The notes under the pieces are model-generated. The model was not told the origin of the DNA and did not search any database. It was given only the letters and a program-made list of their open reading frames with translations. DNA of 32,000 nt from an archaeon (GTDB lineage: Archaea > Iainarchaeota > Iainarchaeia > Iainarchaeales > CSSED10-239): assembly GCA_035400625.1 (NCBI GenBank), contig DAOMZT010000001.1, forward strand, positions 1-32,000, written 5' to 3'. How positions within the stretch are numbered: position 1 is the stretch's first letter; each line of letters opens with the position of its first letter. This document shows positions 1 to 18,591 of this stretch, piece by piece. A program made the translations under genes and the position numbers.

Positions 1-3000
1 ATGTTCCTGGTGCTTCTACTGGAATGCCTCTTGCTTTACCAAAGAATTTTAATTGTGCGGTGTTACCATTTATCACTACTTTGGCATTCGATACGGTAAC
101 CTCCCCACTTAAGTTGCCAGAGGTTAAATTAACTATTCCACTTAGCTTTTTATCGCTCATATCTAATTTTATGTTACCACTTGCAACATCAACTATTCCG
201 CTGACATTACTCGTAAATAGAGGTGAAACTAACGCGGTTAGAGCTGCGCTTACTTGTACTTTTCCACTAGATATTGTTAATTTTGATGTATTAGAACTAA
301 TTGAACCTTTTCCAGAAGATTTAGATTTTGCAGCCTTTAAATTATCTATTCCTTTAGTTAATTGGTTTATTAAATTTTCTAAAGTTGTTTTTTGTTCTTG
401 TAGTTGATCTAATTTTGTCTTATTCGCATCAGAACTTATTTGATTATTTTTTTCTAGAGCTACAATTTCTGCATTTACATTTGCTAATTGTTTTTGTGCA
501 TCAGATAATGATTTCGTTGTTTTATTTATTGCATCATCTATTTGACTAGAGGTCATAGTTGATATTGTTGATGAATCTAAAGATCCCTGACCAACACTTG
601 CAGTAGCTATTGCTATTGCAATCGCTGTAGCATTGGATGTTGATGTTGTGCTTTCACTAGTTGTTACACTTGTAGTGTCCCCAAATGATGTTCTTAAAGG
701 ATTATACCATAAATAAAATCCATTATTAAAATTGAAACACATTTTTTCGCTTGAGATGCCATTAACCATTGTTTGTACTGAACTTGTTTCTTCAGCTGTG
801 AAATTACTAGAGCTTGTTATGTCCTTTAATACTCCATAAACATGTGTAAAGTTCTTTGTAGCACTTAATGTTGTTGGAACAATATTAAACCTCATATCTA
901 AGTTTGAAGAGGTCTTTAATTGATAGTCAGCACCTTTAGTTGATTCATTTATTTTCTGGAAAATAAACAATGTATTTTTCAGCTCAGAAGTGTCTTTTGA
1001 AGAATATTTGCCGTTTGCTATATATTCTATCTTATAAGCTCCTGAAGATAATACTTGTAATGGCCTTATATCTTTAAATGATATCATTACATTATCCTTT
1101 GGAACCTTTAATATTATACCATCTTGTACTACATCCCAGCCATTGTTGTAATTGTCAATAATTTGTGTAGTTTTTGACAATCCTGTCTTTGCGATCTTAA
1201 ATGGCACACCAAAGTAATGGAAATAATAAGCATTTGTAGGGTTTGTAAAGAATGTGTTTGCTTTATAGCCTGCATTATTATTGTAATAATCTAATAAATT
1301 AGAATTTACTTTTTGAACAGTATATGTTAGTTGTTTATTGTTTGCTGTGCTTTTTAATGCAATGCTGTATGTTCCAGGTGTTGCTATCTCTGTTACTGAT
1401 GAAGCAGGATCTAAAGTTAAAGTCCATGCTCCACTCATAAACTGAACAGCACTAAATATTGTTTTTGTTGTTCCTGAATTTAATGGCCCGTAAGTTTTAG
1501 CATTAATAATAAATGGGCTTATTGTGTCACCATAATATAATCTCATAGTGTTTAGATATTGATTTAAGAACTCAGCAATAATTGCTTGCTCTTGTTGAGT
1601 AGTTGATGCATTATTAATCTTTGCCTCTAATTTTGTCTCACTTCTTAAGAACGAATCTACTGTTGTTTGATAGACATCTCCATCTTGCTTTACATTCTTT
1701 GCAAAGTCATTATCTCCTAATATTGTCATATATTCTTTTATTTTCTCAGAAGACAAGTTTGCAGGAGTTGGTTCACTTGTAGTTGTTGCACCAATCTTTG
1801 CTTCAAGTATTGTAAATTTCCTTAAATCAGTAGGCACTCTGCCTATTACTGCCTTTAGTGCTTGCAATATAGAGTTAGGATCACGATTATTAAATGATTG
1901 ACTTGCAACAATGACTTCTATTGCATCTTTATCTAATGGATTTTCATCTAATAGATATGGATTCTCGGCAATCTTATTTCCTTCAAGTAAGAAATATACT
2001 CCATCTAATAGATAGGTTCTGTGTGAACTATATAAATCTGCTTTTTTAGATATCGCAATCCTTAATTGATCTTGATCACAATATACTCTTCCATAATCAC
2101 AAATGTTATGGGTTATATCTATATCATTATATGTAAATAATAATCTATTAAAACCAAACTTCTTGAAATTCTCTTCTCCTGTAAATCCGTATTTTCTAAA
2201 TCCTTTTGGATCATAACACTCGCCAGGATTTAGAGCTTCACTACCAACGAAATAATCTGTTAATGATGTGGCTTGTGTACCTGGGGTTGTGTCACTAGGA
2301 GTTGTGCCACCAGGGGTTGTTTGGCCTTCAAGAGCAGAACTGGTGTCTACAAGACTATCAACATAACTTAGCCATTGAAGCTTATCTATCAAAGTAATCT
2401 CAACTTCCATTTCGTCCTTTCCTAATCTTGGATTAGAATAGGTTATTCCAAGTAATGCTGTTAGATTTATGGCCTTGCCCACATCATAGTAATCTTTTCT
2501 TAATGCTGTTAATTTCTTAGCAACAGAATTATTGTCTTCACTATCAAGTCTAAATGTCTTTTCTGTAATTTCTGGATTTCTTCTTACTTTAATAGTCATT
2601 ATTTCTGTGGTTTTGCCATCAACATACCTGTATGTCTTCTTTGGCTTTAAATCTTTATTAACATCGCCAATATAGAAATATTGAATATCTCCAACAAATA
2701 AATCATCTACATTTAATACGCTTAGACCAGATAATGCATAGCCCATATCATAACAAGAGTTTATCACTGTTAATTTTCTCTCTACCGTATCTATTCCTGA
2801 GAAATCAAACTCTGTAGGAACAACACTGATACAGTTTTCTGGCAAAATACTAACTGGCCTGTTTACAGAAACAACAATGTCTTTAACATAAGTGTAATCT
2901 TCAATTGCATCGTCGTCGGGCTTGGCGTTTACGGAAATCTTGTATTGTCCAAGAACTTGTGAGCCTTGCACGCCTAACATTCCACTTGTCCCTTTCTTTA

Positions 3001-6000
3001 ATGTCATTTCTGAATTTTCTGGATTGGTGATTATTACTCCACCAAGATTGCTAAATTGTAAACTTAAATCTTCAGAACAATTGTTTCTAATTTGTATTTG
3101 TGCTTTTTCACAACCGAACATTCCGTGTGATGAAAATCCAAAAGAGTTAGGATATCCTTGTGGTGTATTTTCTCTGTAATCTGTATATGGCACTCCTGTT
3201 CCTAATACGCTTTGATAACCAAGCATATTTGATGGATATGTTGAACCTGATAACCAACTTTGATTAATTGATTGTGGAGCCACGCCGGCATATTGATAAT
3301 TATATTGACCCATTAAATAAGGATTGAAATTCATGGTGTTTGTTCCGCCAGCAAATAGACTATAACCATAGCCCATACAATAAGGAACTGTGATTAGAGA
3401 GCTTGGTGTTTCTATACAGCTAACATAATTGTTTAATATTATATTAGGCAAATGCTGTGATGCAATCACATCTACGCCATTTACATTTGGTCTATTTGAT
3501 GAAAATATAATAATTGGATTTGACAATCCGCTTTTTGCAGATTTGTTTGGCCTAAAGATTAATTTTATTGTTGCAGTTTCTTCTGCTACAATTCTGTTTG
3601 CAACTTCTACTTTTTCATCAAGTGATAATTTATGCTCTTTTCCAGAAACCACTACATAATAATCTCCTAGTTTCTTTGTGTTCTTATAGTCTGATTCAAC
3701 ATAAATTCTGCCAACATTTACTGGTTCATCATCTACTGTACAATTATTTTTAATCTTAATATTATATTCTATATCATTTGTATTTTCAACCCTTATTGTT
3801 GTTTCCTGAGGGTTAATTTCTAAGCATTCTACATTATCTACTGAATTACCAAATGTAATTCTTACTTTTATTGGAACTTTAATTATCCATACCTTTGCAA
3901 GAGTCGCCTCACTAACTTTTACTAAAAGATCTCCCTCTATAACTTTTTGTGTCATTAGATCTATTCCTTTCTCTGTTAATCTTGTTGAAACATTTATTTG
4001 TTGATGGATTGTTGGTTCTAAAATTGTGCCTTGTGCATCACTTTTCAGAGATATATAATCAGACCTTATGTTTGTTTCCATGCCTATAATTGTTAATGGC
4101 AAAATAGAATTATTTACCAATACCAAATCAGAATCTTGAGAATAGCCTTTTGAAATATCTAATTGTATATCTAATTTCTCAGGTATTGATTCGATTAGAT
4201 TTTCAGAAACAACTTGCTTTATTGTAACTGTACTATAGCTTTGTTTTTTAACAGTAAATTCCACTTCGTCTTTTATATCTGTTGATGGCAACATTACAGA
4301 ATATGTTCCGTCTCTGTCTGTCTTGCCGTTTGCTACTGTTTTTCCATTTATTCTTATAAAAACTATTGCATCTGTTACTTTGGCACCTGACTCTTCTGTT
4401 ACTCCAACAGTTACTACATTTGGCACAAATGGCACCATTGTTTTTGGAACAACATCAACTATCATTTTCTTTGAAGGCTTAAGATCAAAGTGTATTGTCT
4501 TTGATAATATGATGTCATTATTTGCATAAATATTAAATGTTAATTCATCAGTTATGTCATTAATTACACTTAAATCAATTGAACCATTTACTGTGCCGTT
4601 TGCATTTATATTTCCTAAACTGATATTTGAAAAATCAGTATCATTTATTGGTAAGCCACCACCAGAAGTTATGTTGTATTCGTTTAATACTATTGTTTGA
4701 CCGGTTGGCAAAACAACTAAAATTGCATCTGTTGCTGGCCTTTCAAAACTTAATCTAAAATTAAGTTGATAATCTGTTCCTTCTTTTGCTGTAAACTTAT
4801 CCATTACTTTTTTTTCTGCGCCTGTAGATTTGTCTTTGATTGTAAAAGCATAGCAAATGCCGTTTTCACAACTTGAAGAATCGCCTACAGAAATTATTTT
4901 CTTATTTGCATAAGCATAAAGTGCTTGTCTAGTTGAGGAACTTAAACTTGTTCCTAAAACATCATCTCTTGGAAATCTTAATATCGCGGAACCTTGTTGA
5001 TATTCTGCTCTGTAAAATATAGATTGGTCGGTTATTGCGTTGTCAGTAACTACAATATCTGCATCAATAATATAAGAACCCTCTATTGAGTTATCTAAAA
5101 TAACATTAAACCATTTGGCATCTTTGCGGACTATTGAAGAGGTATCTCTTGACTCTCCACCACAAGGAGTGTAATCAACAGAACCATACATTTTATTTCC
5201 TGCATATTTTATTTTCTTAATATATATTGAATCTTCAGTTACAGAATATGTTCTATTACCACAGGTTTCCCCATCTCCTGTTCTTATATGTGCTAAAACT
5301 TTAGAATATTTTCTATTAACATTTAATAAAAATCTTGCAGTTGCTGATTGACCTGCACTAACAGCTGGCAACTGTTCGCCTTTATCTGAAAAGTAACCAA
5401 CAAACTCTATGCTTGCAGAGCTTGAAGCAAAAGAAGGAATGACTATTGTGTCACTAGTCATGTTTTCTGCTTCTACTGAATATCTTTTTGTAATTATTGG
5501 ATTGCCATCTGTGATTACAGCAAAATACACTTCTTTATCTGCTCTAATAGGTAAAATTGCAAGGCCTGTCTCATTTGTGGTTGTTTGCTTTTCGGTCATT
5601 TCTTTATTTGTGTTTGCATCATATGCCTTTACTATTGCGTTTGAAATTGGAGATCCATCTGAATTTAAAATAGTCAAATTATAAGTACCATAACCAATTG
5701 AAACTAAAATTGGGACAGAAGTTTCTTCTCTTTCCTCTACAACAAAATTATTTGTTTTGCCAGTAAATGGTCCTACAATTGCTTCTGCAAAATAAGTTGA
5801 ATCAGCACTTAGATTAGAAACAATTACTCTGCCTGTTACATCTGTTGTTACAATTTTAACAACTGTGTTATTTAATGCGTCCCATATTTTTACTGTAGCA
5901 TATTCTAATGGATTTAGTTCTGTATCTGTTACACTAATCAACAAACTGGTCTTTGTTTCTGCATTCATGCTTCTTAAAGTAACTTCTGTTGTACTTTCAG

Positions 6001-7225
6001 AAACTGTTGCATTTCTGTTAGTGTAAACAAAATAACCTTCTTTATCAAAAGATAAAACATAGGTTACATTCTCTTTTACTCCAAACTCTACAAGGCCTGT
6101 AGTATCTGTTGTTTTAAGATCAATTGTTGAACTTCCTTTTGATAATTTTACTGAAACACCTTCTAGATATAATCCAGAATCGCTTTTTACTCTTACTTTT
6201 ATAAACCCTACAACATCTTTTTTTACTTCTAATGTTTTTTGATTTATTCCTGTAGTAATTGTTACTGGTGTTTGAACATTATTAATATAATCTAAATCAT
6301 TTATTCCTGCATAAATATTTTTTGGATCAGAAACTAATATTTTATAGCTCTTTGAAACTTGAACTAACTCTGTTGTAAAAATACCATTTGCATTTGTTGG
6401 ACCGCTATCGACCATTATTCCTGTCAAATCATAAATAGAAACTAACATGTCTGGTAGAACAATTCCCTTGTCTTTATCTTTTATTGTTATTGATAATGTA
6501 GCATAGTTTACAGAACTACTAAATATGATTTCTCCGCTTGTGCCTGTTGCTGGAATATTTATTTCATAATCGCTTCTGTTTTTTACAGTTACATCTAAGC
6601 TACCACAATCTGTTGGAATGTCATCTAACGTGTGAGAACCGCCTTTAACAATTACTGTTTTTTCATAGTCTGTTCCAAGACAACTAAACTCTACATTTAA
6701 TTCAGAAGTTATTGCTTCTCCTGATTGTGTTTTAAACAAAATGGTTTTTGTGGTTGAAAATGCACCTTCTTTTAGATGAACTACTTGCGATTTCTTGGTT
6801 GGATCAATTGTGTATTCTTCTCTATCTGAAAATAAATATTTAGTGTCTGCTAATTTTAAGATATAGGTTGAATCTTTACTTAAATCTTTAAAATAGAAAA
6901 AACCTTCAGTATCTGTTTCTAGAGTTTTGGATTGACCGTTTAGTTTTACTTTTAAGATAGTGTTTGCAATTGGGTTGTTTGTTTCATCTAGAAACTGAAC
7001 AGCTGTTCCGTGTGGTCCGCCTGTTATTCCAAAAACTGGGAGTAATAAGAAGATAATCAAAGCAATTATTGCAAGATTAAAAATTATAAAAAGAGGGAAG
7101 GTTGGTATTCCGTTTTTTTCTAGAGGATCAACTAGTTTATATAAATTAATTCCCTTTTCCTCTAGCCTATCAAGCATTGCAAAATATTTATCTTCTAATT
7201 TATAATAGAATTCTTTTAATCCCAT
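1..7225 (-). CDS. Giant membrane-anchored beta-sandwich surface protein, paralog A (N-terminal 2408 codons; 3' end lies beyond window start)
   Basis: Hand translation of the minus strand from ATG at 7225..7223 (codon first bases at 7225, 7222, ...) gives MGLKEFYYKLEDKYFAMLDRLEEKGINLYKLVDPLEKNGIPTFPLFIIFNLAIIALIIFLLLLPVFGITGG... The frame stays open to position 2 (...AQLKFFGKARGIPVEAPGT). Checked base by base at 1..58, 2270..2329, 3299..3421 and 7141..7225. It is missing from the ORF track because there is no stop inside the window; an ATG-to-stop ORF starting at 7225 would otherwise have been listed. Collinear similarity to the 3116-aa product of 9241..18591. Confidence 0.85.
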   Translation of the reverse strand, partial: MGLKEFYYKLEDKYFAMLDRLEEKGINLYKLVDPLEKNGIPTFPLFIIFNLAIIALIIFLLLPVFGITGGPHGTAVQFLDETNNPIANTILKVKLNGQSKTLETDTEGFFYFKDLSKDSTYILKLADTKYLFSDREEYTIDPTKKSQVVHLKEGAFSTTKTILFKTQSGEAITSELNVEFSCLGTDYEKTVIVKGGSHTLDDIPTDCGSLDVTVKNRSDYEINIPATGTSGEIIFSSSVNYATLSITIKDKDKGIVLPDMLVSIYDLTGIMVDSGPTNANGIFTTELVQVSKSYKILVSDPKNIYAGINDLDYINNVQTPVTITTGINQKTLEVKKDVVGFIKVRVKSDSGLYLEGVSVKLSKGSSTIDLKTTDTTGLVEFGVKENVTYVLSFDKEGYFVYTNRNATVSESTTEVTLRSMNAETKTSLLISVTDTELNPLEYATVKIWDALNNTVVKIVTTDVTGRVIVSNLSADSTYFAEAIVGPFTGKTNNFVVEEREETSVPILVSIGYGTYNLTILNSDGSPISNAIVKAYDANTNKEMTEKQTTTNETGLAILPIRADKEVYFAVITDGNPIITKRYSVEAENMTSDTIVIPSFASSSASIEFVGYFSDKGEQLPAVSAGQSATARFLLNVNRKYSKVLAHIRTGDGETCGNRTYSVTEDSIYIKKIKYAGNKMYGSVDYTPCGGESRDTSSIVRKDAKWFNVILDNSIEGSYIIDADIVVTDNAITDQSIFYRAEYQQGSAILRFPRDDVLGTSLSSSTRQALYAYANKKIISVGDSSSCENGICYAFTIKDKSTGAEKKVMDKFTAKEGTDYQLNFRLSFERPATDAILVVLPTGQTIVLNEYNITSGGGLPINDTDFSNISLGNINANGTVNGSIDLSVINDITDELTFNIYANNDIILSKTIHFDLKPSKKMIVDVVPKTMVPFVPNVVTVGVTEESGAKVTDAIVFIRINGKTVANGKTDRDGTYSVMLPSTDIKDEVEFTVKKQSYSTVTIKQVVSENLIESIPEKLDIQLDISKGYSQDSDLVLVNNSILPLTIIGMETNIRSDYISLKSDAQGTILEPTIHQQINVSTRLTEKGIDLMTQKVIEGDLLVKVSEATLAKVWIIKVPIKVRITFGNSVDNVECLEINPQETTIRVENTNDIEYNIKIKNNCTVDDEPVNVGRIYVESDYKNTKKLGDYYVVVSGKEHKLSLDEKVEVANRIVAEETATIKLIFRPNKSAKSGLSNPIIIFSSNRPNVNGVDVIASQHLPNIILNNYVSCIETPSSLITVPYCMGYGYSLFAGGTNTMNFNPYLMGQYNYQYAGVAPQSINQSWLSGSTYPSNMLGYQSVLGTGVPYTDYRENTPQGYPNSFGFSSHGMFGCEKAQIQIRNNCSEDLSLQFSNLGGVIITNPENSEMTLKKGTSGMLGVQGSQVLGQYKISVNAKPDDDAIEDYTYVKDIVVSVNRPVSILPENCISVVPTEFDFSGIDTVERKLTVINSCYDMGYALSGLSVLNVDDLFVGDIQYFYIGDVNKDLKPKKTYRYVDGKTTEIMTIKVRRNPEITEKTFRLDSEDNNSVAKKLTALRKDYYDVGKAINLTALLGITYSNPRLGKDEMEVEITLIDKLQWLSYVDSLVDTSSALEGQTTPGGTTPSDTTPGTQATSLTDYFVGSEALNPGECYDPKGFRKYGFTGEENFKKFGFNRLLFTYNDIDITHNICDYGRVYCDQDQLRIAISKKADLYSSHRTYLLDGVYFLLEGNKIAENPYLLDENPLDKDAIEVIVASQSFNNRDPNSILQALKAVIGRVPTDLRKFTILEAKIGATTTSEPTPANLSSEKIKEYMTILGDNDFAKNVKQDGDVYQTTVDSFLRSETKLEAKINNASTTQQEQAIIAEFLNQYLNTMRLYYGDTISPFIINAKTYGPLNSGTTKTIFSAVQFMSGAWTLTLDPASSVTEIATPGTYSIALKSTANNKQLTYTVQKVNSNLLDYYNNNAGYKANTFFTNPTNAYYFHYFGVPFKIAKTGLSKTTQIIDNYNNGWDVVQDGIILKVPKDNVMISFKDIRPLQVLSSGAYKIEYIANGKYSSKDTSELKNTLFIFQKINESTKGADYQLKTSSNLDMRFNIVPTTLSATKNFTHVYGVLKDITSSSNFTAEETSSVQTMVNGISSEKMCFNFNNGFYLWYNPLRTSFGDTTSVTTSESTTSTSNATAIAIAIATASVGQGSLDSSTISTMTSSQIDDAINKTTKSLSDAQKQLANVNAEIVALEKNNQISSDANKTKLDQLQEQKTTLENLINQLTKGIDNLKAAKSKSSGKGSISSNTSKLTISSGKVQVSAALTALVSPLFTSNVSGIVDVASGNIKLDMSDKKLSGIVNLTSGNLSGEVTVSNAKVVINGNTAQLKFFGKARGIPVEAPGT
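454..556 (-). repeat. Conserved nucleotide island shared with 10425..10527 (encodes coiled-coil motif MTSSQIDDAINKTTKSLSDAQKQLANVNAEIVALEKN)
   Basis: Ungapped hand alignment of 454..556 with 10425..10527 gives 75 of 103 identical bases, including 22 of the first 24. The surrounding paralog sequence is too diverged to align at nucleotide level by eye. Confidence 0.8.
7028..7225 (-). other. N-terminal anchor module of paralog A: conserved cytoplasmic motif plus single TM helix
   Basis: YYK-LEDKYFAMLDRLEEKGINLYKLVDPLEKNGIPTF aligns with AYKWLETKYYSFSDWLTKKGINLNKVNSFLEEKGIPAF of the 3116-aa protein (20 of 37 identical, one gap). It is followed by the hydrophobic stretch PLFIIFNLAIIALIIFLLLLPVF (about 7028..7102). 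Confidence 0.7.
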
Positions 7226-7250
7226 TTTTGAAAACCTTCTTTATTCTAGA

Positions 7251-7258
7251 TTTTAATA
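7251..7258 (-). promoter_or_regulatory. TATA-like box upstream of giant paralog A
   Basis: The minus strand reads TATTAAAA followed by 25 nt and then ATG(7225). This spacing recurs at other genes in the window. Low information content in AT-rich DNA. Confidence 0.3.
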
Positions 7259-7382
7259 TAATATATATATTATAATAGATTAAACAATTGTTTATAAAGA
7301 TTACCTTTTTTGCGTAATATATTTATTAACAAAAAGGTTTATAAAATAATATTAATTAACTGGTATAAGTTAAATCTTGTTA

Positions 7383-9191: not shown

Positions 9192-9240
9192 GATTAGATC
9201 TAAATAAAAATATAAGAAAAAGATTTAAAAGGCATTAGGA

Positions 9241-12200
9241 TTATGACAAATTATTATTCATTGCAAAATTATCATAAGTTGCATAGCCACTTCTTGGAAC
9301 AACCACGAAAAATATTTTGTTTGTTGCATATGTTGAAAATAAAGGACTTAATTGTCCTTTATCGCCATTTTGCTGTAATATCATGTGTTCGCCATTTTCG
9401 TTTTTGCCAACATATAAAACAACATGAGGTGGTTGGCAATTTTTAAGTTTTTTGCTTGTGCCTTCTATGCCAATTACAACACCAGGCACTAACACATTAT
9501 CTATTGATTCAATATTATCTTTTCCTTTTTGCCAAACAATTCTGTTTCTTGTGCCGTAATTTTGACTTGTGCCTGTGTCATTATCACAAGCATTTCCTGA
9601 ATTGTAGTTTGCACCATATAACTTATTAGAAACTTCTGTAACAAAACTCGCACAATGATGTGGCACCATTGGTCCAACATCCACACACACAGAACCTAAA
9701 CCTTTCTCACTAAATGTACAACGTGCATAATCTTGTAATTTGTTTTCATGTTGGGTGTACATTCTCATTTGTAGTTCTTCAAGACTTGTGGAAACTTGGG
9801 TTGCATCTGTTTCGATTTTCTCTTCTATTATTTCTGACCAATCTTGAGATTGCACTTGAGGGGTATTTGCTTGTAATAGTTCTTCTTGGTGCTCAGAGGT
9901 TTGTATTTCTTTAATTTCTTTATTATCTGTATAATATATTGCTACATCATTACTTATTGCAGGTATTTCTTTTTCAATAATTACATCGTATTTATTTGCT
10001 TGTTTTATTACTGTTACTTTATACCACACATTCTTTTCAAATTCAGTGACTGGAATTCCAAGATATACTAGATTTGCCAATTGTCCATTCTCGTTTGATT
10101 GACGATTTAAATAATCTTGACCAGCTTGGTTTGATACTGCAACAATAATCATATCAATTGCAAACTTTCCAGCTCCTTTTAAGAATTTCTGAAGTTTAGT
10201 TGGTAATTTTAAAGATTTAATAGAGTCAACAGCATCATCCATACCTTTTACAATATCATCTGAAATGTCTACCATACCTGATCCACTAGCGCCCGCTTTA
10301 ACTTTTCTTAAATCATCAGCAGCATTAGTTAACTTCTGCCCTGCATCTTCTAAACCCAATTTTTGTTTATATAATGTCTCTAGTCTTTTCCTTTTAATTG
10401 CAGGAATTGCTATTCTGTTTTTTTCAAGAGCTACGATTTCTGCATTTATTTTTGTTAATTGCTTTCCAGCACTTGCTGCTGATTTTGTAGCTCTTGCTAT
10501 TGCATCATCTAATTGGTTTGTTGTCATTTTTGTTATTTCTGAGCTTTTGACCATGCCTGTTAAAGCAGAATTTGCAGAAGCAATATCTGTTTTGATTGTT
10601 GAAACATTTCTAATCTTGCCTTCTAAAGCACTATCAATAACAACATTTCCTGCACTATCTGGAGTTAATCCTCCTAGTCCTTTGCCTATATCATCTATTT
10701 GTGATTTTGCACTATTTAATGCGCTTTCATTTCTAACAAGTTCATCCCATTGTAGTTTTAATGCAGGATCTGTTGGAGGAACATTACCAAATGACTCCAT
10801 TTTAATTGTTGCGATTTCATCTAATTGAGATTGAATATTTGTACTAGTGCTTGATATTGATTTTTGCAAAGCTTGACTATCCGCAAGAGTCATTACTCTT
10901 GGACCACCACCTGAGCCAGAACTTATGTGCTTTAGTACTTTATCTATGTTGTCTAATTGTTTGTTTATGCTTCCAATTCCAGCGGAATCAATCCTTGTTG
11001 AAATACCACTGACATCTACTTGTCCGCCAACAATTGGTGCTCCATTAACTTGTAATATTAAATCATCGACCTCTGTTAAACGCGAAGATATTTGCTTTTC
11101 TTGATAAGTTAATATTCTTGATCTTTGTGTTTCTGCTACATTTTTTGGAGTACCAATTGCCTTTAGTTCGCTTTGAACTTCTCCTAGGCGTGTTTTTAAT
11201 TGATTACTTACTTCTGTTGCATCACTAATAAATCTTGTACGTTCAGCTTGTGTTATTGTTGTTGTAGTTATTGATGATCCCGAAGTTCTTAAGAAATCAT
11301 CAACATCTGCTTTAAAGCTTACTCCATTAGGTTTAAACTTACCATTAAGCGCTTTCTCATCAGGATAAGTTCTAGGATTTGCCCAAAACCCATCTTTTGC
11401 AGCTGCATTGAATCTTCCTGTACCGTAACTTGTGTTGTTTGCAATTATTTCACCAAATCTTTGTTGTTCTGCTTTTGTTAGTTTATAAAATCCTGATGTT
11501 AAATCTGAATTAGGTATACTTGCTTTAGTTGCACCTGTACTTAATGGATCAATACCAATCTTACGCAAAATTCTATTTAATTCCGTTTGTTCAGCTCTTG
11601 TTTTTGCATAGAACCAATATTGTGCATTTGGGTGCCTTGAAGTATATTCTATATATTTTATCAATTTTGCTTCGCTTTTTATAGGGGCAAAAGGAGTGCC
11701 TGTTGTTATTGTTTTTGGAGTTACATGGACTAATTTTTTGTCTAAAAACATAGTTGGTGTGCCACTGCCACCACCTGTTATGTTTATTGTATCTGGCAAA
11801 TCATCCATTATTCCCATTAATGGAGTTTCAAATTCTTCTATACTCATAGTATAATCAAATGGATCTACTTGACCTATGCCTTGTCTTGTAAGATCATGAA
11901 TACCAACTATGGTTTCAGCAGCCCCTGCATTCTCTGATAAATCTCCACTATAACCATCTTTGGCTAATTGCTGAGCCAAAGCATCTGCTTCTGCTTTACC
12001 ACTGCCTCCACCCATTATGGCATTTGCAACAGCACCCAACGCATTACCTACAAAGCCAAAGATTTTTTCAACAACCCTTGCAAGGTCTCCTACAACAGGT
12101 ATCTTATGAATAACATCCATAACTTTTTCTGTAATTCCTGTTTCATTACCATACATCGTTACTGTTGGAAGACCACAACCAATACCACAATTCCAAATCA

Positions 12201-15200
12201 AATCTTTCAATAATTTTGCATGACCAAAAATAGGAATAACTTTAGAAATTATATTAACACCTGATGTTAATGTTGCACAGCTTAACATACAACCAGTAAA
12301 ATATGTACCAGCTCTTTTTAACGCTCTTTTGTTTCTTGCGCTTTTCTCTGATTGGGTTTCTTTAAATTCACATTCTTTTGGCTTTACAAACATTGTGGCC
12401 TTGCCACCTAAACTATCATAATATTTCTTTAAGGCATCACAATATTCTTCTTTGTCATTTTTATTATATTCTTTATTCCATGAAACAAAAGCATATATTG
12501 ACTGCTCATTACTTTCTGCATCTCCTGAACTTAATTTACCAGATATGTTGTCTCCAATTCCTATTAGTTGCATTGGGGTTATACCATAATTTAATAAAGT
12601 AATATTAACATCTGCTTTTCTTTCTGAATTTAACTTTCCTATTTTGAATTTACTCTCTGCAGTTATTTTTACAGTCTTATCAGACCAATGTGCAACATCA
12701 CCAATGTCGCCTAAGAAACAAACATTAAAATCAGTTGGCTTGTCTTTTTCAAGAACTAAAGATAATTCATTAGTATAGTCTTTTCCCTGATAAATTAATT
12801 TAGTTCTTACCCCGATTACCTCTTCTGCTTTTATTTTCACTTGTTCATCAAGTGCAGAATTTGCAGTAAGGACAACACATTTCTCTAAAGGTGCTAATTG
12901 CAATTTATTGTTCTGTGCCTTTAAAGACAATGCACCATAATCTGCTGCTTCAAAAGATAATATCAACATATAGTTTTTATCTTTGGAGATACAGATATCT
13001 GCGGGAGTTCCATTGATTATGTCTTTTACATTTTCAGAAACTTGCTTAATAAATTCTTCTGAATATTTTGATTCCTCTCCTTCTTTGTTTATTGAAAATG
13101 TATCATTAACTATTAAATTTATCTTTTCTGGACGAGGGCTTGTAACTGCAACTGGATCATTAAAATATAGTTTTGCGATAGCATTTTCATTCTCTTTAAT
13201 TGTTCCAATTGAAACATCTAGTTGACTGAAATTTTTGACATTGTCTGTCCTTAACTGGAATCTTTCATCGCTATCAAACACTTGTTTTGCAATTGTTTTG
13301 CCAAACTTTTCATCACCACTAATCAATGTTAACCAAGTATTGCCCATATTTGATTTTTTGAAAAAAGTAGTGTCTTTTGGCAGGTACATTCTTACATTTT
13401 CTATACTTTTTGCACAAGGACCCGTCTTATTATAATCTATAGTTACATAGAAATATGCTTTTTCTGGTGCCAGAGTTTTTTGATCCTTTGTTGCAATCCT
13501 GCCATCTATTGTAATTTTATATCTTCCACAACCCTGCATTTTATTATCTACATGTATGATATTACCAATCATCTGCAAACCGCCAGAAGTTGGACCGACA
13601 TATTCTCTTATTTCATAGTTTTTAATGGTTGGATATTTTGCTACTTCTTTGGTGTTTTTTAAAACAATATCTAAGGTTCTTTGAGATAGTGAATCGTTCT
13701 GTAGATAGATAGGAATATTCTTAAATGGCTTTAATTGATCTGACTTTAACAAATCAGAAATCGCACAACCATTCTGTTGTGCAGTTGCAATAGAACAACT
13801 TGTTTGTGCAAGTTCATTATTTAGTTGTCTTGAAGCATCTATGACTACTTTATGTAATTCTTGTATTTTTTCTAATATAAGTTCTGCTGCACCCTCTGCA
13901 TCACAATAGCCATCATCTTTACAATCAGTAACAATCTTTGGCATTGGAATGTCCATTTTTTCATCAGTATCACAGATTTTTACAGCTATATCCTCGTCAA
14001 TTCTTTCTAAATCTGCTACTGTGTCCTCATCAGGTGCTTCTACTTCTGTTGAAATCCAAATAATTTCTGAAGTTACCATGCTTAATGCCGTTCCATTTAC
14101 TGGATAACCAATTAATGTAAATCTATTCTCTGTTCTAGGAGTAAAATACCTGGTTGGTTTTACTTTCAAATAGAAAGCAACTGTTTGACCAACACCAATA
14201 AACGGAACAGGAGTTGCAGGAACTAAAGCAACACCTGTGCCCTCGCCAAACACCATAGTAAAGTCATTAGGTGACTTGTATGGGTGTGGATCATAATCTA
14301 TGTATGCAATAGGCTCTGCACATTGGTTAGTGACTCTAATATACATTGGTTTTTCTTCTCCTATTTTTGTGTGGAAAGTAATTTTTTTCTGATCAACTTT
14401 TAAACAACTAGCTGATGAGATTCTAAAATCAACAGTAAATTTTGCAGTTATTGGGTCCTTTGTACCAGGGGAAATTGCAGAAACTTTATAATACATAGTT
14501 GCTGTTGTTGCATTACTTACTTTGCCTTCATAGATAACACTTACTTGTTTTGTTTGACCAGGCTTTATTTCCTCAAAAGTTAATGGCTCAATCTTATCTT
14601 GAATATTAGAAACATATTTCTCCTCTAGCCTTGATATCTGTATGTCTTTTAATGGATATTTTCCTGTATTTGTTATAGAAAAAATAGTTTTATTTGAGGC
14701 CATTATCTCTTCATTATATTGGCTCATTGAAACAACTGAAACTGGAGGAGTTATTTTTATAGTTTTTGAATAATCAACCAAATCAATATTTAATTTTGTG
14801 TTTGGTAAAGCATAATATGCATTTCTCCAAGCAATCTCAAAGGCATAGCTTTTTGTTGTTTTTCTGGCTTTGTTGTTTTTAATAGTTATTGTGTAATCTG
14901 TTATCTCTTCGTTTGGTTCTATTGTTACAGAAGGGAGAATAACTTCTAGGTTCTCATCTTTCTTTATTACCGTGCCTTTTGCTTTTAATAGCTCTGGAGT
15001 TATAGTTATTGCTTTTTTACAATTGTTGACTAATGTTGCGGTTATCTCATTTTCAGAACCCTCACTAATGCCAACATAACTATAGATCACAAGAGGTTTT
15101 ATATCTAAACAATTTTCTTGCACTTGCCCCTTATAAATATTAATTTCAATATCTTTTGCTACTTGCTTGTTTCCGACAAAACCAAATATTGTTAAAACAT

Positions 15201-18200
15201 ATTTTGCTGTTGTAAACTTAATTTTTGGATCAATTACAGAAACAACTTCTATTTCTGAAGGGGTTGTTGGGTTAAGTGCTACTGGCAAATGAGCTTCTAT
15301 AGTTAATTCAGCAACTTCATCAATTGGTGTAATCTTGTAGGTCAAATCTGTAATCTTTGCATTGCCTTTATTCACTAACTTTATAATCTCTATTTCTTGA
15401 CTAATTTCATTTCCAAAGTTTATTGAGATGCTATCAGGGCCAGAGATAATGCCTGTATCGGCAATCATTAGTTGTCTTGTGTATGGTGCATAGCCTGGAG
15501 CAGTAACTTCAAGATTTGGTCTTGTGCTAGAAAAATTTTGATTAATTATGTATTTCCCTGCCTTTGCTTTTTTAGTACTTGAAATTAGATCCCCAAACTC
15601 ATCTTCTAATTTTACTAATGCGTTGTTTATTGGGCTTTTGTTGTCTGCATCTTTTACTTCTACTGTTATTGGGGTGTTGTATGGCAAAACATCTAAAACA
15701 TTTACTTCTAAGTTTCTTTTATTCTTTATTTCAAAAGTTAATCTTTTTTCTGTAACTTTGGAGTTAAAGGTGGATCTTACATCAATGTGAGTTACGCCTG
15801 TGTTTTTTGCATTAAATAATAAATATTGTTTTTTATAAATTCCTGATTGTAATAAAACAGCCATAGAACTTAATTTTGTTTCTTGAGAATCCAATTTTGA
15901 ACTTGGAAACAAATCTGTGTCTTGATAGTTTATTAGGCCAATAATAGGATGACTTGCATCAGTTTCAGTATCAATTGCTAATTCTCCTGATTGAGTGGTA
16001 TAATAATTTAATTCTAATAAATACATCTCATCAACAGTTCCAAAAAAAGTTTCATTAGAATAGTCAAAGCCACCTTTGTCTAAAAACCTATATTCTACAC
16101 AAAGGTTGTCTGAACATTCAGCAGGAGTTTCAAGGACCTTGAATACTTTTTCCTTTGTTTCTGCATATAGGCCTTGTCTTGAAGAGATGTTTCTTGCGGT
16201 TCCTAATGTTGAGTCTTCTGGATCTCTATGGATTTTTCCTTCACTATCTTCACACCATGCCCTGTACTTTAAAAGCAAATCGCCAATCTCTGTTGCTTTA
16301 ACCTTTAACATTATTTGTTTGTTTGTTACTGACTCAGATGGCCAATATAACTCTAGCCATTTGTTTAAAATATTAGGAGAACCAACATTATCATAATCAA
16401 TGGACTGTTGTCCTTCACGATAGGTTGTAGAATATTTGAAATTTGTAGTGTCTGCCTTAAAGCCAGTTATACCATAAGTCATGTTTTCAGAATCATCTTC
16501 AGAATCATCTCCTGCTCTAAAATGCACTCCACATTTTTTTACATCTATTGGCAATTGCAAATCAAATACCAAATAATAATCATTGTCTTTACTTAATATG
16601 CTTGTTGATTTGTTTTGTAAATCCCTAATCTCTAAAAAAGAAACTATTGGATTAAGATCCTCAATCATTGGTTTTAAGCTTACTGATAAATTCTCCCCAT
16701 CCCCTACTACTCCAGAAGCAACAGTAACATTTCCTTCACCATCTATATATTCCACAATCAAATCCTTGTAGCCTTTGGTTAAAAATTTTGCTGGATTTTC
16801 AGAATCAATATAACCTTCATAAAGAATCTCTCCTGTTTTTGTTTTTACTGTTACATAACCATCAGTTACTGGGTTACCATAAATGTCTTTTAATTGCAAG
16901 GTTACTTCTTTTGATGCATCATTTATTATTAAGATTACCTTGTTATCTTTAAATTGATCAATAGTGATTTCTTGAGAAGCATTTGAATCTCCAGCAATGC
17001 CTACCACCTTATAGGTTTCATCTTTTTGTGTAAAGACATAAGCATAACCTGTTATGTCTACCTGTAATGGACCTAAGCCTATCGGCACATATTTGCCATT
17101 TAATAGTTTATAAATTAAGACATTTGCTGAAGAAAGTGGCATGTTTGCCCCATCATAAACATATATTGAAAGTTTGTAGGTTTCTGCAGAACCAAACTTA
17201 ACAAGCCTTACTTCTAAGTCATTACTAGTATCTATATTCGCAAAATATTGTGAACAAAGATAATCCTCTTTACATGCAGTAACAACATAATCTTTATTTT
17301 TATCAAGGCCTGTAAATGTAACTTCGCCATCAAGTAAGGTTGTTTTTTCAGAAATTAAATTCCCATTAAGATTATATAAAGAAACATCAGCATCACTTAC
17401 TGGGCCAGCCACACTTTCTACAACCATAACTCTTAAATCTGAACTGCCTTTTTTTAAGGTTGCTGTAAAAGTGTCTTCGCTTTTTTGTAATCTAAATGTT
17501 TTGTCCTCTTGGTCACTATCGTATGTTCTGTAATCTTTTTTTGTTACAACAAATCTTATTACAGAACCTGCTTTTTCTGTAAATGTGAATTTGCCTAGTT
17601 GGGTTATGCCATATGCTATTTTTTCGCCAGCAACATTATAGACTGTAACTTCACAATCATCTAATAAATCTCCAGTGTCTGATACTGCCAAGATTGTGCC
17701 CCTTGCATCAAGTCCTTCTAATTGAGCTGAACCCAAATCAAACTGTAATTCTATAGGTATTATTTCATCATTACTTGATATAGTTATAGATTGAGAAACT
17801 GTTTGGTAGCCATCAGCCTCAACAACTAATGAGATAGACTTACCTAATGGTGCATCTGTAAAACTAATTAAGTTTGAGCTTCCTGGTGTTGCTATTTGCT
17901 CTTCTGATTTTCCACTGACTGTATAGTTTAAAGTCGCTTTGTATTTTGAAATGGCTTTTTTTGTTTCTGAATCTGTTACTGTTAATTTGAAATTACCACG
18001 AGTCACATTTTCTGAAAATTTTATTATTATTGGTTCTCCTCTTGTAAACAGGTGACTTTTATCAAAATCTGCAAATCCTGATTTTGTGGCTATAATTGCA
18101 TAATCTGCTCCTGACTTAAGAGCAAGCCTTGCCTTATGACCATCACTTATTGTCCCACTAAATTTTGTCTTGTTTTTTAAATCATAAATCTTAACATCTA

Positions 18201-18591
18201 CATCTGATAATTTGTTTCCTGAAAAATCAGTTAGTGAAAACTCCACTGTTGTTTTTGATGCAAAGTTAATTATTAAGAGAATTATAATTGCTAAAATGAC
18301 AATTGTAAGACTAGCCACAACCACAAAAGCAGGAATTCCTTTTTCTTCTAAAAAGCTATTAACTTTATTTAGGTTTATTCCTTTTTTTGTTAGCCAATCA
18401 GAGAAAGAATAATATTTAGTTTCTAACCATTTATAGGCCTTGCCAAAAATGTTGTTTTCTTTTTGCTTGCCTATGTTTTCTTCTGAGAAATCTTCATCTA
18501 TTTCTGAATAATCATCAATTTCAGTATCATCCTCAAAATCTATTTCTTCTTTGGCTTTAGAGCCTCTAGGTTTTGATTTAGTTCTTGCCAT
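9241..18591 (-). CDS. Giant membrane-anchored surface protein, paralog B (3116 aa) with C-terminal NlpC/P60-CHAP-like domain
   Basis: ORF track. Architecture read from the translation, N- to C-terminus. (1) Basic then acidic cytoplasmic tail (res 1-50). (2) Conserved motif plus TM (res ~50-111). (3) Six ~85-aa beta-sandwich repeats with a carboxypeptidase-regulatory-like pattern (res ~115-640). (4) Many further Ig-like modules with recurring [IV]xNx[GC] strands (LVNKGNAKI, LVNNCKKAI, ITNTGKYPL, VTNQCAEPI). (5) A Cys-rich hydrophobic/Gly-zipper patch (res ~2091-2199). (6) A Ser/Ala/Gln-rich coiled-coil region (res ~2430-2800). (7) A papain-fold C-terminal domain. Confidence 0.95.
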   Translation of the reverse strand: MARTKSKPRGSKAKEEIDFEDDTEIDDYSEIDEDFSEENIGKQKENNIFGKAYKWLETKYYSFSDWLTKKGINLNKVNSFLEEKGIPAFVVVASLTIVILAIIILLIINFASKTTVEFSLTDFSGNKLSDVDVKIYDLKNKTKFSGTISDGHKARLALKSGADYAIIATKSGFADFDKSHLFTRGEPIIIKFSENVTRGNFKLTVTDSETKKAISKYKATLNYTVSGKSEEQIATPGSSNLISFTDAPLGKSISLVVEADGYQTVSQSITISSNDEIIPIELQFDLGSAQLEGLDARGTILAVSDTGDLLDDCEVTVYNVAGEKIAYGITQLGKFTFTEKAGSVIRFVVTKKDYRTYDSDQEDKTFRLQKSEDTFTATLKKGSSDLRVMVVESVAGPVSDADVSLYNLNGNLISEKTTLLDGEVTFTGLDKNKDYVVTACKEDYLCSQYFANIDTSNDLEVRLVKFGSAETYKLSIYVYDGANMPLSSANVLIYKLLNGKYVPIGLGPLQVDITGYAYVFTQKDETYKVVGIAGDSNASQEITIDQFKDNKVILIINDASKEVTLQLKDIYGNPVTDGYVTVKTKTGEILYEGYIDSENPAKFLTKGYKDLIVEYIDGEGNVTVASGVVGDGENLSVSLKPMIEDLNPIVSFLEIRDLQNKSTSILSKDNDYYLVFDLQLPIDVKKCGVHFRAGDDSEDDSENMTYGITGFKADTTNFKYSTTYREGQQSIDYDNVGSPNILNKWLELYWPSESVTNKQIMLKVKATEIGDLLLKYRAWCEDSEGKIHRDPEDSTLGTARNISSRQGLYAETKEKVFKVLETPAECSDNLCVEYRFLDKGGFDYSNETFFGTVDEMYLLELNYYTTQSGELAIDTETDASHPIIGLINYQDTDLFPSSKLDSQETKLSSMAVLLQSGIYKKQYLLFNAKNTGVTHIDVRSTFNSKVTEKRLTFEIKNKRNLEVNVLDVLPYNTPITVEVKDADNKSPINNALVKLEDEFGDLISSTKKAKAGKYIINQNFSSTRPNLEVTAPGYAPYTRQLMIADTGIISGPDSISINFGNEISQEIEIIKLVNKGNAKITDLTYKITPIDEVAELTIEAHLPVALNPTTPSEIEVVSVIDPKIKFTTAKYVLTIFGFVGNKQVAKDIEINIYKGQVQENCLDIKPLVIYSYVGISEGSENEITATLVNNCKKAITITPELLKAKGTVIKKDENLEVILPSVTIEPNEEITDYTITIKNNKARKTTKSYAFEIAWRNAYYALPNTKLNIDLVDYSKTIKITPPVSVVSMSQYNEEIMASNKTIFSITNTGKYPLKDIQISRLEEKYVSNIQDKIEPLTFEEIKPGQTKQVSVIYEGKVSNATTATMYYKVSAISPGTKDPITAKFTVDFRISSASCLKVDQKKITFHTKIGEEKPMYIRVTNQCAEPIAYIDYDPHPYKSPNDFTMVFGEGTGVALVPATPVPFIGVGQTVAFYLKVKPTRYFTPRTENRFTLIGYPVNGTALSMVTSEIIWISTEVEAPDEDTVADLERIDEDIAVKICDTDEKMDIPMPKIVTDCKDDGYCDAEGAAELILEKIQELHKVVIDASRQLNNELAQTSCSIATAQQNGCAISDLLKSDQLKPFKNIPIYLQNDSLSQRTLDIVLKNTKEVAKYPTIKNYEIREYVGPTSGGLQMIGNIIHVDNKMQGCGRYKITIDGRIATKDQKTLAPEKAYFYVTIDYNKTGPCAKSIENVRMYLPKDTTFFKKSNMGNTWLTLISGDEKFGKTIAKQVFDSDERFQLRTDNVKNFSQLDVSIGTIKENENAIAKLYFNDPVAVTSPRPEKINLIVNDTFSINKEGEESKYSEEFIKQVSENVKDIINGTPADICISKDKNYMLILSFEAADYGALSLKAQNNKLQLAPLEKCVVLTANSALDEQVKIKAEEVIGVRTKLIYQGKDYTNELSLVLEKDKPTDFNVCFLGDIGDVAHWSDKTVKITAESKFKIGKLNSERKADVNITLLNYGITPMQLIGIGDNISGKLSSGDAESNEQSIYAFVSWNKEYNKNDKEEYCDALKKYYDSLGGKATMFVKPKECEFKETQSEKSARNKRALKRAGTYFTGCMLSCATLTSGVNIISKVIPIFGHAKLLKDLIWNCGIGCGLPTVTMYGNETGITEKVMDVIHKIPVVGDLARVVEKIFGFVGNALGAVANAIMGGGSGKAEADALAQQLAKDGYSGDLSENAGAAETIVGIHDLTRQGIGQVDPFDYTMSIEEFETPLMGIMDDLPDTINITGGGSGTPTMFLDKKLVHVTPKTITTGTPFAPIKSEAKLIKYIEYTSRHPNAQYWFYAKTRAEQTELNRILRKIGIDPLSTGATKASIPNSDLTSGFYKLTKAEQQRFGEIIANNTSYGTGRFNAAAKDGFWANPRTYPDEKALNGKFKPNGVSFKADVDDFLRTSGSSITTTTITQAERTRFISDATEVSNQLKTRLGEVQSELKAIGTPKNVAETQRSRILTYQEKQISSRLTEVDDLILQVNGAPIVGGQVDVSGISTRIDSAGIGSINKQLDNIDKVLKHISSGSGGGPRVMTLADSQALQKSISSTSTNIQSQLDEIATIKMESFGNVPPTDPALKLQWDELVRNESALNSAKSQIDDIGKGLGGLTPDSAGNVVIDSALEGKIRNVSTIKTDIASANSALTGMVKSSEITKMTTNQLDDAIARATKSAASAGKQLTKINAEIVALEKNRIAIPAIKRKRLETLYKQKLGLEDAGQKLTNAADDLRKVKAGASGSGMVDISDDIVKGMDDAVDSIKSLKLPTKLQKFLKGAGKFAIDMIIVAVSNQAGQDYLNRQSNENGQLANLVYLGIPVTEFEKNVWYKVTVIKQANKYDVIIEKEIPAISNDVAIYYTDNKEIKEIQTSEHQEELLQANTPQVQSQDWSEIIEEKIETDATQVSTSLEELQMRMYTQHENKLQDYARCTFSEKGLGSVCVDVGPMVPHHCASFVTEVSNKLYGANYNSGNACDNDTGTSQNYGTRNRIVWQKGKDNIESIDNVLVPGVVIGIEGTSKKLKNCQPPHVVLYVGKNENGEHMILQQNGDKGQLSPLFSTYATNKIFFVVVPRSGYATYDNFAMNNNLS
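9244..9720 (-). other. C-terminal papain-fold NlpC/P60-CHAP-like hydrolase domain of giant B
   Basis: GPMVPHHCASFVTEVSNKLYG (Cys codon 9652..9654) lies upstream of LVPGVVIGIEGTSKKLKNCQPPHVVLYVGKNENGEHMILQQNG (His codon 9424..9426), with the His 76 residues after the Cys. Cys-then-His order, the xCxxFV context, the pGxxv...HVxxYxG strand, and a polar His/Gln 13-18 residues later fit the NlpC/P60-CHAP pattern. Confidence 0.6.
10425..10527 (-). repeat. Conserved nucleotide island shared with 454..556 (encodes MTTNQLDDAIARATKSAASAGKQLTKINAEIVALEKN)
   Basis: See 454..556: 75 of 103 bases identical, ungapped. Confidence 0.8.
11995..12320 (-). other. Internal hydrophobic, Cys- and Gly-rich patch of giant B (possible membrane-inserting hairpin)
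   Basis: RAGTYFTGCMLSCATLTSGVNIISKVIPIFGHAKLLKDLIWNCGIGCGLPTV...VVEKIFGFVGNALGAVANAIMGGGSG contains two hydrophobic segments about 20 residues long. The second is a GxxxG/A-type glycine zipper. There are five Cys within about 50 residues. Confidence 0.4.
16669..18249 (-). repeat. Six tandem, diverged ~85-aa prealbumin-fold (carboxypeptidase-regulatory-like) repeats (protein level)
   Basis: Repeats begin at TVEFSLTDFSGNKLSDVDVKIY, GNFKLTVTDSETKKAISKYKATL, RGTILAVSDTGDLLDDCEVTVY, DLRVMVVESVAGPVSDADVSLY, YKLSIYVYDGANMPLSSANVLIY and VTLQLKDIYGNPVTDGYVTVK. Each is followed by a ...G.f.f......Y.v.a.k.GY... pattern. No nucleotide-level repetition is visible. Confidence 0.6.
18259..18444 (-). other. 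N-terminal anchor module of giant B: conserved cytoplasmic motif plus single TM helix
   Basis: GKAYKWLETKYYSFSDWLTKKGINLNKVNSFLEEKGIPAF is followed by VVVASLTIVILAIIILLIINFA (about 18259..18330). Homologous to 7028..7225. Confidence 0.7.

Follow-up and report, generated by a model that had tools for sequence, protein, structure and literature searches.

The window analysed here is a 32,000-nucleotide stretch of archaeal DNA from the Iainarchaeota (GenBank assembly GCA_035400625.1, contig DAOMZT010000001.1, positions 1 to 32,000), whose first 18,591 nucleotides encode two giant candidate surface proteins, giant B and giant A, and between them a pilin-like protein of 602 amino acids (aa). These three minus-strand genes fill the region 1-18591 with nothing else credible (Table 1), and their layout, including the intergenic spacers of 49 nt and 157 nt, is borne out by the open reading frame (ORF) coordinates, as it had been drawn in a first-pass annotation made from the sequence alone. 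That annotation proposed an undescribed device for attachment to, and penetration of, another cell; its observation of the locus is confirmed, while its interpretation is supported in part.

The region has 30-34% G+C and a steadily negative GC skew, and frames as long as those of the giants and the 602-aa protein are not chance products, since such lengths cannot arise randomly in DNA of 31-33% G+C. Full-length orthologs exist for all three genes (30-77% identity), and the short plus-strand ORFs within the giants are antisense noise. Scans of the window for tRNAs and Rfam families returned no features, and a promoter and terminator scan stayed at background level with bacterial models that are not applicable to archaea.

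Table 1. Features of the three-gene cluster in window coordinates
Feature	Position	Strand	Basis and remarks
Giant B	9241..18591	-	3116 aa; ORF; Pfam CarboxypepD_reg, bMG3 and SdrD_B matches
Giant B cytoplasmic N-terminal module, aa 53-89	18325..18435	-	Common to giants A, B, C and D; BLASTP E 2e-5 vs giant A; alignment
Giant B transmembrane (TM) helix, aa 90-110	18262..18324	-	Kyte-Doolittle scan, peak 3.45; the protein's only TM
Giant B prealbumin/CarboxypepD_reg-like repeats x4, aa 118-447	17251..18240	-	Iterated hidden Markov model (HMM), Pfam
Giant B central module, aa 764-1115	15247..16302	-	Collinear with giant A 725-1077; hmmsearch with giant A ortholog profile, domain E 4.7e-8
Giant B fifth prealbumin-like repeat, aa 977-1037	15481-15663	-	Iterated HMM
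Giant B coiled coil, aa 2662-2774	10270..10608	-	Helix-former-rich window; conserved in giant B orthologs
Giant B Gly/Ala-rich hydrophobic segment and small beta domain, aa ~2800-2885	9937..10194	-	Ortholog C-termini compared; no TM score
Giant B papain-like (NlpC/P60/CHAP-like) domain (predicted), aa 2935-3116	9244..9789	-	AlphaFold2 (AF2), Foldseek, ortholog alignment
602-aa pilin-like protein	7383..9191	-	ORF
Prepilin-like signal of the 602-aa protein, aa 1-29	9105..9191	-	Leader MNRKG, then FTLFTALISLLLVSVALALIFNMI
Giant A, first 2408 of 2448 aa	1..7225	-	Open frame running off the window's left edge; translation
Giant A N-terminal module (aa 7-43) and TM (aa 44-66)	7028..7207	-	BLASTP, TM scan, alignment
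Giant A prealbumin-like repeats x5, aa 76-574	5504..7000	-	Iterated HMM, Pfam
Giant A sixth prealbumin-like repeat, aa 940-1000	4226-4408	-	Iterated HMM
Giant A coiled-coil insertion, aa 2198-2309	299..634	-	BLASTP matches giant B orthologs only

Extent and conservation of the island

The window matches NCBI record JAKQTP010000138.1 (a 599 kb contig of a metagenome-assembled genome) at 100% identity and differs little from a JGI contig of 813 kb; an unchanged copy of the 602-aa protein is found on at least 21 contigs in public data. The extension of the contig that had been proposed in the first-pass annotation recovers the C-terminus of giant A, which is 2448 aa long when complete (full gene in the identical contig L002). 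Giant C starts 52 nt past giant A with an N-terminus of the same kind as the other giants; its product measures 1542-1741 aa across near-identical strains, and its C-terminal part consists of KEPDPN tandem repeats followed by a Cys-rich domain (L010 17115-21774; L011 17115-22034), the gene in L010 being frameshifted inside the repeats. In a 97%-identical strain, giant C (1553-1639 aa) is followed by a 978-aa protein (L010 22203-25139), which combines a Sec signal with a Gly-rich hydrophobic stretch and is matched by no Pfam family, and then by giant D (2484 aa; L010 25256-27062), again N-anchored and carrying CarboxypepD_reg, SpaA and PEGA repeats. The window genes thus form the first half of a larger island, probably of 35-42 kb and about 5% of a genome of 0.8-1 Mb, and the two-stalk model first put forward gives way to at least four paralogous giants plus the 978-aa protein.

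Homologs of the 602-aa protein fall into 57 clusters at 90% identity, and the family comprises 213 clusters at 50% identity in a profile search of 1.84 billion representatives. The order giant B, pilin-like gene, giant A, giant C is kept in more than 15 Iainarchaeota genomes at identities down to ~30%, among them loci L001-L009, of which L007, L008 and L009 stand at 33-41%. Among 19 loci inspected from GTDB species representatives, the same order was found wherever the contig is long enough, with the sole exception of L021, in which a 780-aa gene takes the place of giant B before the pilin-like gene and giants A and C follow as usual. The distant relatives L032, L033 and L035 likewise keep this order. 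Moreover, the complete genome of Candidatus Forterrea multitransposorum (CP045477.1, 839,632 bp; L023) carries the locus in the same order, with a giant B of 2671 aa, a pilin-like protein of 559 aa (30% identical), a giant A of 2323 aa and a giant C of more than 953 aa, and its giants share their N-terminal modules with those of the window. All named carriers are recorded as 'archaeon', Candidatus Iainarchaeum/'ainarchaeum' or Candidatus Diapherotrites. A lack of synteny in related genomes, named at the outset as grounds for giving up the proposal, is decisively contradicted by this conservation, by which the three window genes are to be regarded as a real syntenic functional unit.

Architecture of the giant proteins

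In a direct BLASTP comparison, giants A and B match only in the N-terminal motif (E 2e-5) and in a coiled coil (E 2e-11). Their collinear paralogy, as first claimed, is borne out by profile HMMs built from four orthologs of each giant: the giant B profile matches giant A collinearly across residues 7-1163 (E 2e-41), and the giant A profile matches giant C over residues 1-1331 (E 4e-86). The motif pairs that had been noticed in the central module (YRAW... and ECSDNLC; B776/A738 and B825/A785) lie inside the aligned block.

The shared N-terminal motif and membrane anchor were likewise recovered by BLASTP and TM scan. The module comprises ~40 residues, roughly G-[LF]-K-x-F-Y-Y-x-L-E-x-K-Y...L-Y-K...[ED]-K-x-G-I-P-x-F, and is directly followed by the one TM helix that each giant possesses, none being present at the C-terminus. 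A cytoplasmic module joined to a single N-terminal TM helix predicts a type-II (N-in) topology with a giant ectodomain. Two further candidates were rejected: a second TM helix in giant B near aa 2805-2825, where a Gly/Ala-rich segment stays below the TM score, and a role of the giants as prepilin-peptidase substrates (KG/IPAF in B, NG/IPTF in A), since giants C and D lack Gly or Ala at that position.

Behind the anchor, an HMM seeded on Pfam CarboxypepD_reg matches and then iterated detects five prealbumin-like repeats in giant B and six in giant A, which bears out the 'about six' of the first-pass annotation; Pfam PF13620 itself scores 58 bits in giant B and 73.7 bits in giant A against a cut-off of 32.3. 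Searches of both giants in Pfam, NCBIfam and the PDB found nothing beyond generic beta-sandwich domains, and neither giant contains recent internal or tandem repeats; roughly 60% of the residues of giants A-D and the 978-aa protein fall outside Pfam domains. The giants are accordingly predicted, from sequence, to be N-anchored proteins built largely of beta-sandwich repeats. The [IV]xNx[CG] strand motif that had been described in their Ig-like modules is no more frequent than chance predicts (3 occurrences, with 2.2 +/- 1.5 expected).

The coiled coil calls for a different explanation from the one first given. The sharing is real, and residues 2198-2309 of giant A are 42-46% identical to giant B orthologs; they match giant B orthologs only and are missing from all other giant A alleles (among them P0078, 97% identical and 2353 aa long; L004, 2354 aa). 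The segment is therefore a strain-specific, recent B-to-A copy made within the locus, not a trace of ancestral collinearity, and this copy explains why giant A is 2448 aa long here and 2353 or 2354 aa in those alleles. Giant B orthologs span 2362-3182 aa.

The pilin-like protein and the C-terminal tip of giant B

The 602-aa protein begins with a short basic leader ending in Gly and a conserved hydrophobic segment of ~22 residues, as class III signals do, and it is the only window protein that fits a custom FlaFind-like regular expression. Residues 5-28 are among the most conserved of the family (31 aligned homologs), G5, F6, L8, F9, T10, A11, L15, L17, S19, N27 and M28 being nearly or fully invariant; distant relatives with ~20-25% identity elsewhere still start [KR][GA]F[TN]LFTAL, and every relative inspected retains G/A at -1 and K/R at -2. 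Such strong conservation is unlike that of a cleaved Sec h-region and points to a class III signal whose helix is kept in the mature protein. An AF2 model based on the family's own alignment (pLDDT 82, pTM 0.78) places a single helix at aa 8-77 (window 8961-9170), followed by mixed alpha/beta structure.

The 'prepilin-like' of the first-pass annotation therefore holds for a conserved N-terminus of class III type, while curated models stay below threshold: Pfam PF07963 (N_methyl) reaches 15.0 bits against a cut-off of 21.2 (E 0.019; best relative 18.8 bits), NCBIfam ComGF reaches 17 bits against 80 (E 0.005), and the N-terminal matches to NCBIfam ComGE and GspH are weak too. NCBI names the ortholog P0012 'prepilin-type N-terminal cleavage/methylation domain-containing protein'. 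The N-terminus thus appears to behave like a class III or prepilin signal and not like a Sec signal, 'prepilin-like' applying at the level of the motif only. The globular part of ~530 residues contains eight invariant Cys, a probable extracellular signature; it finds no match in Pfam or among PDB sequences, and a Foldseek search of the PDB returned no pilin or other fold at E < 0.9. Compared with type IV pilins and pseudopilins (especially those of ComGF type and the large minor pilins that, like GspK, lack Glu5), the protein is alike in its leader, hydrophobic segment and long helix, and differs in its sub-threshold scores, a Thr at +5, the unmatched 530-aa globular part and the lack of assembly genes nearby.

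In a reading that corresponds to the model of the first-pass annotation, the protein would belong to a type IV filament, as a minor pilin or at its tip, with the machinery encoded elsewhere, and would present or cooperate with the giants as pilus-associated adhesins in the manner of PilY1 with minor pilins or of the GspK tip complex. The prepilin-like N-terminus without Glu5, as in tip pseudopilins such as GspK, the long alpha-1 helix of the AF2 model, the weak ComGF, ComGE and GspH matches and a canonical class III pilin beside giant B in the distant locus L032 would all suit such a role. However, no major pilin, ATPase, platform protein or peptidase was seen in or near any locus inspected, the giants own TM anchors and need no pilus, and Foldseek finds no pilin fold, so that we consider a tip pilin distinctly improbable.

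Several observations were made around the pilin-like gene in other genomes. In L034 (4095-8543), tandem pilin-like paralogs of 529 and 479 aa are followed by VapB/PIN and RHH/PIN toxin-antitoxin pairs and then by the next giant; in L031 (1399-2467), an NTase/HEPN pair lies directly upstream of the gene; and in L007 (9695-9886), a small ORF lies between it and giant B. Two genes of L032 (588-1834) stand just upstream of giant B: one encodes the class III pilin (MMNSKGQAFSTFQLLISAIIAL..., 199 aa), the other a membrane protein of 210 aa that weakly matches the exosortase/archaeosortase family (PF09721, E 2.8e-4).

To the C-terminus of giant B, an envelope-degrading domain had been assigned. Cys2980, His3056 and Gln3074 are invariant in 10 orthologs, and in an AF2 model of the domain (pLDDT 83, pTM 0.84) the Cys sits on H46-58, at the helix N-terminus, with the His on E122-129 and the Gln on E135-141, two consecutive strands. 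In this predicted structure, the placement of Cys, His and polar residue corresponds to the papain-like arrangement of NlpC/P60 and CHAP enzymes. The best Foldseek match in the PDB is Ly7917 (E 0.013, probability 0.94), with NlpC2, Acd24020, PlyC and LytE among the further matches, and the best in BFVD is a phage NlpC/P60 protein (E 3.6e-3, probability 0.99), along with several C51/CHAP proteins. An hhalign comparison with the orthologs' NlpC/P60 aligns Cys and His at a probability of only 6.6%. The domain resembles NlpC/P60 (MEROPS C40, PF00877) and CHAP (C51) in the order of Cys, His and polar residue and in their secondary-structure placement, and differs from them in its extra conserved Cys residues and in the lack of a significant Pfam or PDB sequence match.

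The strongest argument for a divergent papain-like Cys-His-Gln domain, as modelled, is its position. The orthologs P0063 and P0069 carry a canonical PF00877 domain at the same place (E 6e-25), P0068 has the window-type domain and PF00877 in tandem, and the canonical domains are nearest to Firmicute autolysins (7cfl, E 7e-23). In orthologs devoid of a hydrolase, the chain ends with the small beta domain that follows the coiled coil and the Gly-rich segment. At least five C-terminal states can thus be distinguished among giant B orthologs: window type, NlpC/P60, both, other unclassified domains and none. The alternative domains of the distant orthologs P0072-P0076 have no Pfam match; a likeness to lytic transglycosylases noticed by eye was dropped, as no catalytic Glu-Ser motif is present. 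No window-type domain was found in the viral contigs scanned. In L033 (9443-9922), a 159-aa ORF between giant B and the pilin-like gene resembles the fused C-terminal domain of P0073, which suggests that the tip may also be encoded apart from giant B or survive as the remnant of a frameshift.

A constant scaffold with alternative C-terminal domains is also a feature of polymorphic toxins, and giant B might accordingly be the delivery stalk of a contact-dependent weapon whose exchangeable end kills competitors, with the rest of the cluster as accessory. The tip domain that occurs as a separate small ORF in L033 would agree with this. Nonetheless, giant B is followed in all loci by the conserved pilin-like gene and not by a variable immunity gene, and many lineages have no tip domain at all; moreover, a murein hydrolase is not something against which an archaeon has to be immune, so that the classic toxin/immunity logic is not readable from the sequence. 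We hold such a weapon to be improbable. Least probable of all, in our judgement, is surface-tethered scavenging, in which the giants would bind polymers and debris and the tip would free peptides from peptidoglycan necromass for uptake: a minimal biosynthetic capacity (PMC5905446) and a murein-type peptidase in an organism without murein speak for it, but small secreted enzymes would be far cheaper than stalks of 3000 aa, and the hydrolase is dispensable in many lineages.

Proposed function and flanking genes

We regard it as about an even call that the cluster is a contact apparatus for binding another cell; the physical association of the proteins, their adhesive role, the wall target and any symbiotic or predatory lifestyle are all inferred. 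Variation within the locus takes the form of the coiled-coil copy, the changing number of KEPDPN repeats in giant C and the swapped tips of giant B. A lineage-wide island, shared anchors, an obligatory pilin-like partner and rapid in-locus variation fit such an apparatus best and a static envelope less well.

The island encodes three to five paralogous giants of 1500-3100 residues, each predicted to be fixed in the archaeon's own membrane, whose chains of beta-sandwich and unclassified domains would project outward and act as long adhesive fibres. The N-terminal helix of the pilin-like protein (~560-600 aa) encoded between giants B and A most likely stays as a membrane anchor or assembly helix, and the protein may serve as a membrane-anchored organiser or partner of these two giants at fixed stoichiometry. 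It would not be a filament subunit, because it is single-copy and large, has no assembly genes nearby and accompanies giants that anchor themselves. In the present sub-lineage, the distal tip of giant B would link contact with the cutting, on the spot, of a wall cross-linked by peptides. From lineage to lineage the tip is exchanged or missing, and it would adapt the apparatus to its partner while remaining outside the core machine. A tip of murein type implies that the partner's wall is cross-linked by peptides; such a partner would most simply be a bacterium, with pseudomurein methanogens as an alternative. In its most specific form, in which a cell-surface machine specific to cluster-1 DPANN archaea (Iainarchaeota) has a pseudopilin-like protein of novel fold to nucleate or cap a bundle of N-terminally anchored, paralogous giant fibres, three to five in number, and an exchangeable murein endopeptidase tip on one fibre for breaching bacterial or pseudomurein partners, the proposal is doubtful and put forward tentatively. 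The island may also be the penetration device of an episymbiont.

Several findings weigh against a contact apparatus of this kind. At the tip, the last 182 residues of giant B have no Pfam (PF00877/PF05257) or PDB sequence match, and the Foldseek scores are modest (E 3.6e-3 to 0.1, TM 0.35-0.5). Among the giant B orthologs inspected, about half have no hydrolase, that of Ca. Forterrea being one of them, so that the envelope-degrading domain of the first-pass annotation, supported as a predicted papain-like domain, would be an exchangeable accessory and not the core of the mechanism. In the pilin-like protein, +5 is Thr and not Glu (F1 T2 L3 F4 T5; alignment consensus KKGFTLFTAL); Glu5 is dispensable in archaeal pilins and in tip pseudopilins such as GspK. 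Its globular part matches nothing, which makes the role proposed for it a guess. Within 10 kb of ~30 loci, neither a pilus ATPase nor a platform protein, a major pilin or an A24 peptidase was found, and no prepilin-peptidase GxGD[..]K motif in 618 kb of locus DNA, which covers the cluster neighbourhoods only. Furthermore, some Diapherotrites have been argued to be free-living (as cited in PMC5905446), which would agree equally well with a structural role in the envelope.

That the giants and the pilin-like protein build the archaeon's own envelope, as a structural surface coat or S-layer substitute without a specific role in binding other cells, is in our view unlikely, even with points of some weight on its side: the whole lineage has the cluster, and in syntenic form, as would be expected of housekeeping envelope genes, it represents a very large genomic investment (PMC5905446), its core giants lack an enzyme domain in many genomes, and the window itself shows no canonical S-layer gene. 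The giants, however, are anchored at the N-terminus and consist of heterogeneous domains that are not of lattice type; unlike archaeal S-layer proteins, they have a signal-anchor at the N-terminus only, no C-terminal TM and no S-layer Pfam domains. Rapid allelic variation in the coiled coil, the KEPDPN number and the tips is more typical of interaction or arms-race proteins, and a murein-type endopeptidase would be without a substrate in an archaeal envelope.

The contact reading is not without precedent for this island. Probst and Banfield (2018; Genome Biol Evol, PMC5905446) mention 'five large membrane-anchored proteins in a 42-kbp region', each >1,800 aa, in Ca. Forterrea multitransposorum, and independently read the region as a cell-cell interaction locus of an organism without nucleotide, lipid or vitamin synthesis. 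The Forterrea region is orthologous to the window locus and has the same gene order, its giant B being without the window's C-terminal peptidase domain. The paper's treatment of the region is limited to a single sentence and a figure legend; neither 'pili' nor 'pilus' appears anywhere in its text, and its passages on the region mention no hydrolase, paralogy or synteny. The system is therefore not as undescribed as had been supposed, since the cluster was noticed before, whereas the pilin-like gene and the hydrolase tip go unmentioned there.

Giant surface proteins are also familiar from elsewhere: the SPEARE proteins of Nanohaloarchaeota, reportedly described by Hamm and colleagues in 2019, are giant multi-domain surface proteins of reduced-genome symbionts. 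In Apilactobacillus kunkeei, the five consecutive genes of Giant1-5 make up 6% of the genome (PMC12863079). The window island shares with both a run of several adjacent genes whose products measure 1500-8000 aa and which occupy ~5-6% of a small genome, the elongated repeats, the in-locus recombination and the proposed cell interaction; in contrast, no sequence relationship was detected, the window giants anchor by an N-terminal TM and cytoplasmic module, and an obligatory pilin-like partner gene is present here and lacking there. Cluster-2 DPANN archaea possess type IV pilus loci with coiled-coil proteins, for which host interaction has been proposed (Hamm et al. 2024, PMC11291902). These resemble the window locus in combining pilin-type proteins with long coiled-coil surface proteins, but the cluster-2 DPANN/Undinarchaeota loci carry CpaF and TadC, whereas the window locus, in Diapherotrites/Iainarchaeota according to the named records, is without assembly genes. 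The locus is thus set apart from other giant clusters by its N-terminal anchor module, its invariable pilin-like partner of novel fold and the absence of assembly genes nearby. A DPANN comparative-genomics paper contains nothing on pili or peptidoglycan.

To our knowledge, no member of the Diapherotrites/Iainarchaeota has been cultivated, and whether they are free-living or host-dependent is debated. A lineage-wide locus that takes up ~5% of the genome and combines giant fibres with an obligatory pilin-like protein is an obvious candidate for interaction machinery, and its polymorphic tips may provide a sequence-based hint at the wall chemistry of the partner: the bona fide Firmicute-type NlpC/P60 domains of the orthologs would point to murein and hence to bacteria. 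In addition, the pilin-like family, with its 213 clusters and a confidently predicted fold that is unmatched, offers a clean marker gene and a structural target. If true, the breaching of a bacterial or pseudomurein wall would be a cross-domain DPANN-host interaction with a dedicated apparatus.

The remainder of the window (18.7-32 kb) contains ordinary archaeal housekeeping genes, namely those for LemA, a low-molecular-weight phosphatase, PEP synthase, DUF2207, a phosphoribosyltransferase, a flavodoxin/ferredoxin protein, an XPD-type helicase and an AsnC-type regulator. LemA (18782-19339, minus strand) lies directly upstream of giant B, and the DUF2207 membrane protein (22976-24817, minus strand) 4 kb further; LemA adjoins giant B in L009 but not in L007, L008 or L023, and is therefore probably not part of the system. 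In lineages without LemA at this place, a conserved polytopic membrane protein of 111 aa is found upstream of giant B (L007 655-990; L008 1099-1434), to which a soluble 111-aa ORF of the window (20141-20476) is unrelated. A 496-aa ORF at 30435-31925 on the plus strand has a weak xRRM match (E 0.004).

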